Shown here one piece after another: positions 39,078-40,662 of a stretch of 41,819 nt of DNA; within the stretch, counting starts at the first letter, position 1; each line of letters begins with the position of its first letter. The DNA comes from a virus. Its lineage: Duplodnaviria > Heunggongvirae > Uroviricota > Caudoviricetes. The stretch lies in IMG/VR virus record IMGVR_UViG_2721755721_000002. One strand, written 5' to 3'. The notes below the pieces were generated by a model that saw only the letters and a list, made by a program, of their open reading frames with translations, had not been told where the DNA came from and did not search any database. A program made the position numbers and the translations under genes.

Positions 39078-40391
39078 ATGGCAGTAAAGATTTCAGGTGT
39101 ACTGAAAGACGGCACAGGAAAACCGGTACAGAACTGCACAATCCAGCTGAAAGCAAAACGTAACAGTACCACGGTGGTGGTGAACACGCTGGCCTCAGAA
39201 AATCCGGATGAAGCCGGGCGTTACAGCATGGACGTCGAGTATGGTCAGTACAGCGTCACTCTGTTGGTGGAGGGATTCCCTCCATCACATGCCGGGACCA
39301 TCACCGTGTATGAAGATTCTCAACCGGGGACGCTGAATGATTTTCTCGGTGCCATGTCGGAGGATGACGTCCGGCCGGAGGCAATGCGTCGTTTTGAACT
39401 GATGGTGGAAGAAGCGGCGCGTCACGCAGAGGAGGCGAAGAAGAATGCCGGAGAGGCGGAGACATCAGCGAGGAATGCCGGCATATCAGCCAGTCAGGCA
39501 GAAGAGAGCGCTGCAAATGCTGACACTTCAGCAGGGGATGCATCGGAGTCAGCCCGGCAGGCGGCAGAAAGTGCAGCCGCTGCAAAGCAGTCAGAGGAGG
39601 CGTCCTCGTCCTCGGCCTCTGCGGCCGCTCAAAAAGCCAGTGAGTCATCACAAAGTGCAGCAGATGCTGAATTGTCAAGAAAGACGGCAGAAAGTGCAGC
39701 CGGTAATGCAGCCAGGGATGCAACGACCGCAACAGAAAAAGCCCGGGAGTCAGCAGAAAGCGCACAGTCAGCGGAACAAAGCAGGATAGCGGCGGAAGAG
39801 GCCGTAAACCGAATCCCCACCGTGGTGGGACCTCCCGGGCCAAAGGGGGAACAGGGGCCCGCGGGTCCTCAGGGGCCGAAGGGTGATAAGGGAGAGCGCG
39901 GTGACACCGGCCCTGTCGGGGCAACCGGCGAACGGGGACCGGCAGGTGATGCTGGTCCGGCAGGCCCGCAGGGGCCGAAAGGTGACAGGGGAGAGCGGGG
40001 AGAGACCGGTCTGACGGGAAATGCAGGTCCACAGGGTCCAAAGGGAGATACCGGTGCGGCAGGCCCGGCAGGCCCACAGGGACCGAAAGGAGAAACAGGT
40101 GCGGCTGGCCCGGTGGGGGCAACCGGACCTCAGGGACCGAAGGGCGACCCGGGGGAGACACAAATCCGTTTTCGTCTGGGGCCGGCGAGCATTATTGAGA
40201 CAAACAGCAATGGCTGGTTCCCGGGTACAGATGGTGCGCTCATCACCGGACTGACCTTTCTTGACCCCAAAGATGCCACACAGGTTCAGGGGCTGTTTCA
40301 GCATTTGCAGGTCAGGTTTGGTGACGGGCCGTGGCAGGATGTTAAGGGGCTGGATGAAGTGGGCAGTGATACAGGCAGAACAGGAGAATGA
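39078..40391 (+). CDS. stf: Side tail fibre (Stf-like N-terminus) with collagen-like Gly-X-Y repeats
   Basis: N-terminus MAVKISGVLKDGTGKPVQNCTIQLKA... near-identical to lambda Stf; Ala/Ser-rich low-complexity middle; GPPGPKGEQGPAGPQGPKGDKGERGDTGP... collagen repeats at about nt 39830-40150. Confidence 0.8.
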   Translation: MAVKISGVLKDGTGKPVQNCTIQLKAKRNSTTVVVNTLASENPDEAGRYSMDVEYGQYSVTLLVEGFPPSHAGTITVYEDSQPGTLNDFLGAMSEDDVRPEAMRRFELMVEEAARHAEEAKKNAGEAETSARNAGISASQAEESAANADTSAGDASESARQAAESAAAAKQSEEASSSSASAAAQKASESSQSAADAELSRKTAESAAGNAARDATTATEKARESAESAQSAEQSRIAAEEAVNRIPTVVGPPGPKGEQGPAGPQGPKGDKGERGDTGPVGATGERGPAGDAGPAGPQGPKGDRGERGETGLTGNAGPQGPKGDTGAAGPAGPQGPKGETGAAGPVGATGPQGPKGDPGETQIRFRLGPASIIETNSNGWFPGTDGALITGLTFLDPKDATQVQGLFQHLQVRFGDGPWQDVKGLDEVGSDTGRTGE

Positions 40392-40392
40392 C

Positions 40393-40662
40393 ATGAACGT
40401 ACTAAAAAAACTTATGCAGCGTCTGTGCGGGTACGGAAAGCATGATGACCGTGAACACGGGGAGTTACTTACAGCACAACTGCGTCTGGGACCGGCAGAC
40501 ATTCTGGAGTCAGATGAGAATGGCATTATTCCGGAGCAGGACAGGGTAATCACGCAGGTGGTGATACTGGATGCAGATAAAAAGCAGATACAGTGCGTGG
40601 TAAGACCGCTGCAAATTCTGCGTGCTGACGGGACGTGGGAAAATATTGGCGGGATGAAGTAA
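40393..40662 (+). CDS. Hypothetical protein (89 aa) downstream of stf; possible fibre accessory/chaperone
   Basis: ATG 2 nt after the stf stop; followed by a terminator; no motif recognised. Confidence 0.4.
   Translation: MNVLKKLMQRLCGYGKHDDREHGELLTAQLRLGPADILESDENGIIPEQDRVITQVVILDADKKQIQCVVRPLQILRADGTWENIGGMK

Follow-up and report, generated by a model that had tools for sequence, protein, structure and literature searches.

An EPclA-type collagen-like side tail fibre and a stand-alone paralogue of its PfC tip domain in a lambda-like prophage

The last two late-operon genes of the virus sequence studied here almost certainly encode a collagen-like side tail fibre of the EPclA type and, immediately downstream, an 89-amino-acid (aa) stand-alone paralogue of the PfC domain with which that fibre ends. 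The window, by which we mean the whole stretch of DNA that was analysed (41,819 nucleotides), is a lambda-like long-tailed prophage with the gene order Q, tRNAs, terminase gpA, capsid E, tail tube V, tape measure H, I, J and Lom. Overall, the locus is probably best explained by a trimeric EPclA-type fibre accompanied by a separately translated, dispensable PfC accessory. Fibres of the EPclA type (EHEC prophage collagen-like protein A) are well known from lambda-like prophages of pathogenic E. coli and have been characterised before, so that nothing new is learned about them from this copy; nor is its combination with the 89-aa open reading frame (ORF) unusual, the pair being very common and the standard EPclA arrangement. 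The features discussed below are as follows.

39078-40391, + strand: stf, EPclA-type collagen-like side tail fibre gene, 437 aa (ORF list, Pfam, PHROG, RefSeq)
39078-39476, + strand: PfN domain, aa 1-133 of the fibre, lambda-Stf-like, presumed virion attachment end (PF08400)
39477-39827, + strand: PCoil, Ala/Ser-rich stalk, aa 134-250, 117 aa (composition, direct repeats)
39828-40160, + strand: Col, 37 uninterrupted Gly-X-Y triplets, collagen triple helix, aa 251-361 (regular-expression count, PF01391)
40164-40355, + strand: PfC, Phage_fiber_C domain PF06820, aa 363-426, trimerisation module and presumed receptor-binding knob (Pfam)
40382-40386, + strand: Shine-Dalgarno sequence AGGAG of the 89-aa ORF, inside the last stf codons (sequence)
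40393-40662, + strand: 89-aa ORF, stand-alone PfC paralogue (Pfam, PHROG 576, RefSeq)
40393-40473, + strand: N-terminal extension of the 89-aa ORF, aa 1-27, predicted short helix (AF2 model)
40474-40659, + strand: PF06820 domain of the 89-aa ORF, aa 28-89 (Pfam)
40677-40705, + strand: intrinsic terminator closing the late operon, stem CCGGAG/CUCCGG flanked by A- and U-runs (RNA fold)
39301-40161, - strand: spurious 286-aa antisense ORF over the coiled-coil and collagen coding region (ORF list)
39768-40715, - strand: spurious 315-aa antisense ORF over the collagen region, PfC and the 89-aa ORF (ORF list)

The fibre gene starts with ATG and ends with TGA at 40389-40391; an alternative GTG start two codons upstream would give a product of 439 aa. 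The product falls in PHROG 366/3279 ('tail fiber protein'), matches the three Pfam families PF08400, PF01391 and PF06820, and corresponds to WP_073569698.1 in a RefSeq locus that is 100% identical and annotated alike. The original prediction had the feature begin at 39500, which falls within stf, but what it described there is present: the fibre is 437 aa long and its stalk is rich in Ala and Ser (38 Ala, 23 Ser and 15 Glu among 117 residues), with 33-nt imperfect direct repeats (family D2) in the stalk coding region. The N-terminus is lambda-like, as had been proposed, since PF08400 covers aa 1-133 (E 2.8e-68, profile positions 1-133 of 134) and the N-terminal 160 aa are 74% identical to lambda Stf (orf-401). 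That this PfN domain forms the virion attachment end is presumed by analogy with lambda Stf and with phi24B gp61, as seen by cryo-EM. The earlier estimate of about 35 Gly-X-Y triplets at 39830-40150 came close to the exact count of 37, which make up one single stretch of 111 aa with Pro at 18 of the 37 X positions and match the Pfam Collagen family (E 3.4e-18); a run of this length cannot be due to chance. Triplet number ranges from 26 to 38 across related loci, and DNA repeat families D1 and D3 lie in the collagen coding region. NCBIfam Scl/Lcl models matched the fibre in its Gly-X-Y region only and far below their cut-offs. The C-terminus, described beforehand as short and distinct, is indeed not of the Stf type, but it is a catalogued domain that matches the full PF06820 profile (positions 1-64 of 64; E 3.5e-36, 123.8 bits against a cut-off of 25), is followed by an 11-aa tail (40356-40388), and is a known trimerisation module (Ghosh et al. 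2012, PMC3368898). We infer that PfC binds the receptor.

The succession of PfN, PCoil, a single 111-aa Col of 37 triplets and PfC, 437 aa in total, is that of EPclA, from which this fibre departs by allelic differences only and by nothing of substance; PCoil is given as 116 aa in Table 2 of the EPclA study (PMC3368898) as against 117 aa here. EPclA genes are Z0982 of CP-933K, ECs0844 of Sp3 and ECs2717 of Sp14, and the domain lengths are identical in CP-933K/Sp3 and, for each O157 genome, in six to seven further prophages (PMC3368898). Purified recombinant EPclA (rEPclA, from O157 Sakai) is a trimer of collagen and coiled coil with a dumbbell shape in EM; its CD spectra indicated collagen and coiled coil, melting at 42 and 52 C, and the coiled-coil nature of PCoil was established by CD and SEC-MALLS (Ghosh et al. 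2012, PMC3368898). The full-length protein folded and trimerised in a laboratory strain without the 89-aa ORF, and PfC (aa 363-426) trimerised alone and nucleated rapid refolding of Col; by itself, PfC could be expressed only as a thioredoxin (Trx) fusion, and Trx-PfC likewise trimerised alone (PMC3368898). The downstream 89-aa gene is not discussed in that paper, where the word 'downstream' has 0 occurrences. Given how nearly identical the architecture is to that of rEPclA, we assume that the present fibre would also be a homotrimer with a collagen triple helix and a coiled coil. Functionally, PfC is comparable to the foldon of T4 fibritin and the globular domain of Streptococcus Scl2, small autonomous trimers that register and nucleate a triple-stranded stalk; no sequence relationship of either to PfC was found.

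Lambda and this prophage share the order J-lom-stf, and in both fibres an Ala/Ser-rich segment comes after the similar N-terminal 160 aa; the alignment to lambda orf-401 ends at aa 160 of this fibre. Further on, lambda Stf (orf-401/orf-314) has Phage_fiber_2 repeats and a C-terminus that depends on Tfa, whereas this fibre has collagen and PfC, and a Pfam search of the stf product returned no match to PF03406 (Pf2, the Phage_fiber_2 repeat) at E ≤ 0.1. The idea of a mosaic receptor-binding module is right in that only the first ~160 aa align to lambda Stf, but what follows them belongs to the known EPclA module rather than to a new mosaic. The 89-aa ORF had been said not to resemble Tfa, and it gave neither a BLASTP alignment with lambda Tfa (orf-194) at E ≤ 100 nor, at E ≤ 0.1, a match to any Pfam family but PF06820, Tfa families included. 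Neither Tfa homology of the ORF nor a standard Stf C-terminus was thus found. Because PfC self-assembles, a Tfa-type chaperone would be superfluous, and none is encoded here.

The two long antisense ORFs, already dismissed as spurious in the original prediction, gave no Pfam match. Polymorphisms under the antisense overlap fall 22, 12 and 5 times at sense-frame codon positions 3, 1 and 2, and they comprise 24 synonymous and 19 non-synonymous changes if the sense frame is read, but 16 and 27, respectively, if the antisense frame is. This pattern, together with the lack of a Pfam match, indicates that both antisense ORFs are spurious. A similar antisense ORF was once annotated in phi24B.

A domain search of the fibre C-terminus and the 89-aa ORF, suggested at the outset, returned PF06820 for both, a paralogy that the first reading of the sequence had missed. 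The ORF matches the whole PF06820 profile (1-64 of 64; E 5.2e-36, 123.3 bits against a cut-off of 25) and PHROG 576 over its full length (1-89 of 89; E 1.1e-59), and its RefSeq entry is WP_001101711.1, 'phage tail fiber C-terminal domain-containing protein'. The two PfC domains of the locus are 39% identical, and R31, G33, I37, G44, I53, T54, L73, Q74, D79, G80 and W82, which are structural core residues, are invariant between both paralogue types. An intact ORF is present in 81 of the 83 related loci. Its 54 alleles carry 25 synonymous and 19 non-synonymous polymorphisms, with a pN/pS of 0.16 in the PfC domain and 0.42 in the N-terminal extension; the value for the PfC of the fibre itself is 0.32. 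Purifying selection acts on the ORF.

Among 5,426 complete E. coli genomes, 698 carry the ORF (6,390 places) and 697 the fibre PfC (6,159 places), each with a median of 10 copies per genome, and the two are strictly co-inherited. Across 296 phage records the pair ends long-tailed EPclA and short-tailed EPclB fibres alike, and in all 83 loci examined it is the fibre-type tip that sits on the fibre. Alleles of the fibre PfC and of the ORF (27 × 27) are freely shuffled into 48 combinations, which gives no sign of co-adaptation and makes co-variation uninformative. The taxonomic range of the ORF is narrow among the matches listed (E. coli, E. albertii and C. rodentium); in C. rodentium the copy is shortened, sits inside a decayed prophage remnant and is of no use for selection analysis.

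Solved structures matched the 89-aa ORF by sequence at chance level only (E of at least 0.49), and an AF2 monomer model built from a 15-sequence alignment reached a pLDDT of 54, with a helix at residues 3-12 and five strands at low confidence; the phi24B authors reported the same AF2 failure for the PF06820 domain. Given these two results, a tip-capping interface is without structural support. A profile search of 1.84 billion representatives yielded only 94 matches, most of them E. coli fragments or chimeras. Long multi-repeat matches in this search were SprB or CarboxypepD_reg repeat proteins, which we judged to resemble the profile at the level of motifs and not to be homologues, and one metagenomic collagen protein (P0237) contains four PfC-like half-modules. 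A lipoprotein or signal peptide at the N-terminus of the ORF (MNVLKKLMQRLCGYG) was discarded on inspection, the segment being charged rather than hydrophobic and Cys14 polymorphic (C/Y/R), and a metal site formed by C12, C14, H17 and H22 was rejected because positions 14 and 22 vary.

The AGGAG of the ORF lies 6 nt before its ATG, and the stf stop and the ORF start are separated by a 1-nt gap (TGAcATG). Of 83 related loci, 79 have an identical sequence over the 33 nt that end with the ATG, and 80 keep the 1-nt gap. In all likelihood, the ORF is translated separately. The notion that the junction is conserved beyond its neighbours was unconvincing (1-6 variable sites per 30 nt, as against 2-8 within the ORF). 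The ORF is the last late gene ahead of the terminator, whose fold (-20.4 kcal/mol, z -3.0) is kept as a hairpin in all downstream classes of related loci, while the sequence beyond it diverges. In this window, nleB2 lies directly 3' of the fibre module, and it presumably adjoins the EPclA gene in CP-933K and Sp3 as well.

Sp5 ORF68, phi24B 'gp59' and AU6Stx1 atfT (PHROG 576) are 91-99% identical to this ORF and are placed 1 nt past the fibre stop, with the same junction sequence as here. In these Stx phages, which are short-tailed, the ORF follows a longer EPclB fibre that is essential, whereas the prophage studied here is long-tailed and lambda-like, has J as central fibre and carries the ORF behind an EPclA side fibre. 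In Sp5 the fibre gene is essential and ORF68 is not, as its deletion still gives plaques and lysogens (Mondal et al. 2016, PMC5155283), with no phenotype on K-12. The accessible part of the phi24B virion proteome supplement lists two peptides of the ORF homologue, ADGTWENIGGMK and VITQVVILDADKK, with 3 spectra each, that is, 6 spectra compared with 47 for one C-terminal peptide of the fibre. Such scarcity in virions, as far as this part of the supplement goes, is as compatible with a contaminating or loosely attached protein as with a structural partner.

A dispensable accessory is not the only reading that these data allow. For Sp5 ORF68, Mondal et al. (2016, PMC5155283) put forward the idea of a reservoir, in which the ORF serves chiefly as silent spare-tip DNA and recombination with the stf 3' end now and then swaps PfC and changes specificity. 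The non-essential nature of the ORF suits this idea, as do a near-identical stretch at the domain start of both PfC coding segments (CGTCTGGGnCCGGC) and a 10-nt microhomology, GGACCGGCAG, which occurs at 39936 in the collagen region and, codon-aligned with it, at 40489 in the ORF; a natural in-frame deletion has its ends at exactly the GGACCGGCAG sites (P0062, contig L083), and a reciprocal-type chimera exists as well (P0190). However, a DNA store would need neither the strong ribosome-binding site nor the ATG nor the conserved 27-aa extension, all of which are kept, and the homologue is translated in phi24B, judging from the accessible spectra. The overall DNA identity of the two PfC segments is also too low for regular homologous recombination, the fibre retains its own type of tip in every one of the 83 loci, and among the best 120 protein-cluster matches to the ORF there is no full-length fibre and a single collagen-fused match, itself rare (4 sequences from 2 samples). 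We therefore regard a reservoir as unlikely. It is still less probable, indeed decidedly so, that the ORF is a functionless leftover from a partial duplication of the fibre 3' end, carried along by its linkage to stf: the lack of a known phenotype, the narrow range among the matches listed and the shortened C. rodentium copy in its decayed remnant would all be in keeping with this, but 81 of 83 copies are intact, the pN/pS of 0.16 lies below that of the fibre's own PfC, the translation signals are conserved, the paralogues keep their core residues at 39% identity, and the protein was detected by mass spectrometry in the phi24B data accessible to us.

According to a GenBank note on AU6Stx1 atfT (KU977420), a +1 shift is brought about there by a slippery sequence together with a pseudoknot; programmed frameshifting of this kind near the stf end would fuse the ORF to the fibre, so that a minority of fibres carry a second PfC knob, an 'alternate tail fiber tip'. 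A literature search on 'atfT' / AU6Stx1 returned no paper on the claimed frameshift. Ahead of the ATG, the ORF frame runs for 46 codons without a stop, but we would expect such a stretch by chance about once in ten cases at this composition. The search database used for phi24B contained two hypothetical fusions, with the entry 'Spike or just gp59?', the low abundance of ORF peptides would suit a low-efficiency shift, and tandem PfC-like modules are found in the unrelated metagenomic collagen-containing protein P0237. Yet a reading of the overlap (40255-40391) revealed no recognisable +1 slippery site, and stf ends with GAA, then UGA C, where the tRNA reading GAA is unable to re-pair on AAU. 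In the +1 frameshift of prfB, a Shine-Dalgarno-type element stands 3 nt upstream of the slippery codon, whereas here AGGAG abuts the last sense codon. RNA folding of the region gave nothing stable (z +0.56, with 131 of 200 shuffled sequences folding equally well) and Rfam gave no match, Mondal et al. found no frameshift signal either (PMC5155283), and in the accessible phi24B data no junction peptide was found while the normal C-terminal peptide of the fibre had 47 spectra. A programmed frameshift is thus, in our estimate, very improbable. The ORF comes right after the fibre gene, with which it shares translational coupling, and this position behind a fibre gene is that of tfa, P2 G, Mu U and T4 gp38. 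An obligatory fibre-tip assembly chaperone in place of Tfa might accordingly be considered, the more so as PfC could not be expressed without a thioredoxin fusion (Ghosh et al., PMC3368898). But rEPclA trimerises and folds without the ORF and Trx-PfC trimerises alone (PMC3368898), the Sp5 fibre gene is essential when ORF68 is not, and the ORF has no sequence similarity to Tfa; this reading is already largely refuted and is hardly credible.

For the reading that we prefer, a trimeric fibre with a separately translated accessory, the following mechanism may be proposed. The fibre would work as a homotrimer anchored to the tail by PfN, with a three-stranded Ala/Ser coiled coil and the 37-triplet collagen helix as a hinged stalk. 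PfC would trimerise on its own, start collagen folding from the C-terminal end and form the distal knob, which presumably touches the cell surface. The 89-aa PfC paralogue would be translated on its own, starting from the AGGAG and translationally coupled to stf, and would most likely form a small PfC-type oligomer that assists the fibre tip without being indispensable. It might pair with or cap the distal knob, or it might help to adjust adsorption to natural hosts, but it would not be a chaperone needed by the fibre. We infer both its oligomerisation and its association with the fibre, and the role at the tip is putative, a plausible suggestion that we make tentatively. A more specific version appears doubtful to us, namely that the 89-aa protein is a structural partner that stacks on or mixes into the terminal PfC trimer, or joins the fibre by low-frequency fusion, and so gives a second receptor specificity on natural hosts.

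Three incompatible ideas about this ORF, as a reservoir, a frameshift fusion and a separate protein, have come from a published study, a GenBank annotation and the supplement of a proteomics analysis, and the comparative evidence favours a separately translated protein under selection. If the accessory role is correct, the ORF would encode a tip accessory that is paralogous to the tip itself and thus of another kind than Tfa or gp38. Fibres of this kind are carried by prophages that bear Shiga toxins and type III effectors, and their binding helps decide which E. coli strains acquire those genes.

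The window is a lambda-like long-tailed prophage with genes for Q, three tRNAs, a NanS-p-like esterase, terminase gpA, capsid E, tail tube V, tape measure H, I and J, the last followed in order by Lom, the fibre gene, an 89-aa ORF and nleB2. Its final 3.5 kb is 100% identical to Escherichia coli B19374 (NZ_CP142915), where RefSeq labels read J, Ail/Lom, 'prophage tail fiber N-terminal domain-containing protein', 'phage tail fiber C-terminal domain-containing protein' and nleB2. The main features are:

9501-10196, antiterminator Q
11737-13587, NanS-p-like esterase (DUF1737 + SASA + DUF6645)
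38354/38390-39013, Lom, after J and before the fibre gene
39078-40391, fibre gene stf, 437 aa
40393-40662, the 89-aa ORF
40677-40705, hairpin and U-run 3' of the ORF (RNA fold -20.4 kcal/mol, z -3.0)

The original prediction of a side tail fibre was confirmed, with slightly corrected coordinates. The protein has the expected length of 437 aa and a lambda-like N-terminus, with a Pfam match to PF08400 at residues 1-133 (E = 2.8e-68) and 74% identity to lambda orf-401/Stf over the first 160 residues, where the alignment ends. Residues 134-250 are rich in Ala, Ser and Glu (38, 23 and 15 of 117), and residues 251-361 (nt 39828-40160) form 37 unbroken Gly-X-Y triplets, close to the roughly 35 anticipated at 39830-40150, with Pro at 18 of the 37 X positions. 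A domain search of the fibre C-terminus and the ORF found PF06820 (Phage_fiber_C, hereafter PfC) in both, spanning the full profile at fibre residues 363-426 (E = 3.5e-36). The predicted short, distinct C-terminus is therefore present but is a catalogued, experimentally studied domain; similarly, the proposed mosaic module, presumably receptor-binding, is real, likeness to lambda Stf ending at residue 160, but is an ordinary one.

Two antisense ORFs over stf had been called spurious, and this held: family matches were sought for them and none found, and variable sites in the overlapped region track the sense frame (22, 12 and 5 at codon positions 3, 1 and 2). A spurious ORF like that at 39301-40161 in the window has been annotated in GenBank: the antisense 'hypothetical protein' vb_24B_37c, across the fibre collagen region of phi24B (HM208303; L084:1807-2661, minus strand). 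Among the otherwise near-identical fibres of related loci L002-L081, triplets number 26, 27, 30, 32, 36, 37 or 38 and lengths range over 400-440 aa, differing mostly by multiples of 3 aa (whole triplets), which points to slippage or recombination in the GC-rich repeats.

The module is known, abundant and experimentally characterised. Ghosh et al. 2012 (PMC3368898) sorted 'EHEC prophage collagen-like proteins' into four architectures. One of them, EPclA, consists of an N-terminal domain, coiled coil, collagen region and PfC and occurs in 7-8 prophages per O157:H7 genome, including CP-933K (Z0982) and Sp3 (ECs0844); its dimensions (437 aa, 116-aa coiled coil, 111-aa collagen) match those of the window's fibre. 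Expressed EPclA was a trimer, dumbbell-shaped with a hinged stalk; its collagen region formed a true triple helix melting at 42 C, its Ala/Ser region a trimeric coiled coil melting at ~52 C, and its PfC (residues 363-426, as in the window's fibre) trimerised alone and enabled rapid collagen-helix refolding (PMC3368898). Because PfC self-assembles, the lack of an encoded Tfa is expected.

The 89-aa ORF, said not to resemble Tfa, indeed showed no similarity to lambda Tfa when this was sought. It belongs to a known family, matching PHROG 576 end to end, and is a stand-alone copy of PfC: PF06820 covers residues 28-89 (E = 5.2e-36), identity to the fibre's own PfC is 39%, and both paralogue types share an invariant core (R31, G33, I37, G44, I53, T54, L73, Q74, D79, G80, W82). 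A 27-residue extension precedes the domain, and a low-confidence AF2 model (pLDDT 54) has a helix at 3-12 and then five strands, in agreement with the CD result of little helix in PfC (PMC3368898).

A ribosome-binding AGGAG lies 6 nt 5' of the ATG, and stf stop and ORF start read TGAcATG. Comparison of 83 related loci (IMG/VR, reference phages and the window) showed the same 33 nt leading up to the ATG in 79, the 1-nt gap in 80 and an intact 270-nt ORF in 81. Its 54 distinct alleles hold 25 synonymous and 19 non-synonymous polymorphisms (site-corrected ratio 0.22), with pN/pS of 0.16 in the PfC part, 0.42 in the extension and 0.32 in the fibre's own PfC, so the ORF protein is constrained no less strongly than the fibre tip. 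Codon 81 (40633-40635; ADG-T-WEN), between invariant D79-G80 and W82, encodes any of five residues across these alleles (T, R, K, A, M) and may specify an exposed, diversifying contact residue.

How, then, is the ORF used? The AU6Stx1 GenBank record names its homologue 'atfT, alternate tail fiber tip' and claims a +1 frameshift, which near the stf end would join ORF to fibre; a literature search found no paper backing this. In the window, reading the overlap by eye revealed no +1 re-pairing site, stable RNA structure is absent (z +0.56) and there is no Rfam element, while Mondal et al. 2016 (PMC5155283) reported no frameshift signal for the Sp5 homologue, ORF68. The ORF frame is closed 5' of 40252, so a shift could yield a fibre with two PfC domains or with its own PfC cut short, but not one with its PfC exchanged. 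The accessible part of the proteomics supplement to a 2026 phi24B cryo-EM preprint contains two peptides specific to the homologue (3 spectra each), 47 spectra for the fibre's normal C-terminal peptide and hypothetical 'Fusion_6159' entries labelled 'Spike or just gp59?', with no stf-ORF junction peptide in that part; the main text is silent on the homologue.

Mondal et al. proposed instead an intragenomic reservoir for tip variation, and rare chimeras do occur: protein P0062 reflects an in-frame deletion between codon-aligned copies of the 10-mer GGACCGGCAG, one in the collagen region (39936-39945) and the other in the ORF (40489-40498), and P0190 is of the reverse type. However, ORF-type tips on full-length fibres were found neither among the best 120 protein clusters nor at any of the 83 loci, and a pure DNA reservoir leaves it unexplained why the translation signals and the N-terminal extension are conserved. 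A chaperone required for fibre assembly is contradicted, since recombinant EPclA folds alone (PMC3368898) and deletion of ORF68 was tolerated, the gene being non-essential for plaques and lysogenisation on K-12 (PMC5155283). Best supported is an accessory of the fibre tip that is translated separately and, though under selection, can be dispensed with; its partner and effect we infer. The natural GGACCGGCAG deletion product (L083:4-291) is a short fibre of ~14 triplets ending in an ORF-type PfC, with a SopA/pentapeptide effector gene 3' of it.

The hairpin at 40677-40705 is kept in all related loci and divergence begins 3' of it; the ORF is therefore the last late-operon gene before variable effector cargo. 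Another G+C-rich hairpin with a T-run (39040-39061), between lom and stf and 17 nt 5' of the stf start, probably stops transcription of lom in the lysogen and is passed by Q-modified late transcription. nleB2 (40839-41819; PF24688, E = 3e-181) starts 177 nt 3' of the ORF and has 33-37% G+C, versus 55-68% in stf. In B19374 (L001:6554-8697) the sequence after nleB2 holds an nleC fragment, a C-terminal Tfa remnant, a frameshifted nleH and nleF; the remnant suggests the earlier presence here of an stf-tfa module, predating the effector cargo. Elsewhere, 9501-13587 has a Stx-phage-like layout lacking toxin genes, with tRNA-Met(cat), tRNA-Arg(tcg) and tRNA-Arg(tct) after Q (10407-10656) and ~1 kb devoid of recognised genes before the esterase. 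In the early region, a 932-aa ORF (4410-7208, plus strand) with an AAA_22 ATPase domain, a C-terminal SEC-C motif and a weak N-terminal Cap4-nuclease-like match (E = 6e-6) looks like a prophage-borne defence gene.

Of 5,426 complete E. coli genomes, 698 contain the ORF, at 6,390 places in all, and 697 contain the fibre-type PfC segment, at 6,159 places; for each, the median is 10 copies per positive genome. In short-tailed Stx phages (933W, Sp5, phi24B; 296 phage records) the same pair ends a longer fibre, EPclB. Searching 1.84 billion representatives with a profile gave only 94 matches, nearly all fragments from E. coli and relatives, and the domain is therefore narrowly distributed; the resemblance to SprB or CarboxypepD_reg repeat proteins seems confined to motifs, and these were rejected as homologues. 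The metagenomic, collagen-containing protein P0237 carries four tandem PfC-like half-modules, so serial stacking of such modules is possible. This 565-aa protein (Logan SRR17035117 contig, L089:3505-5202) is an unrelated one; its repeats resemble the C-terminal half of PfC (VVVLDAD...RADGTW.EIP), beyond them lie a Gly-X-Y segment and then another C-terminal region, and its flanking ORFs have no Pfam family. In Citrobacter rodentium (L085:3494-4916) the module has decayed: a 161-aa N-terminal domain/PfC fusion lacking the stalk precedes a shortened 78-aa stand-alone PfC and then an NleG effector gene.

The fibre-ORF finding is thus real but ordinary, and its residual interest lies in the role of the stand-alone tip paralogue.
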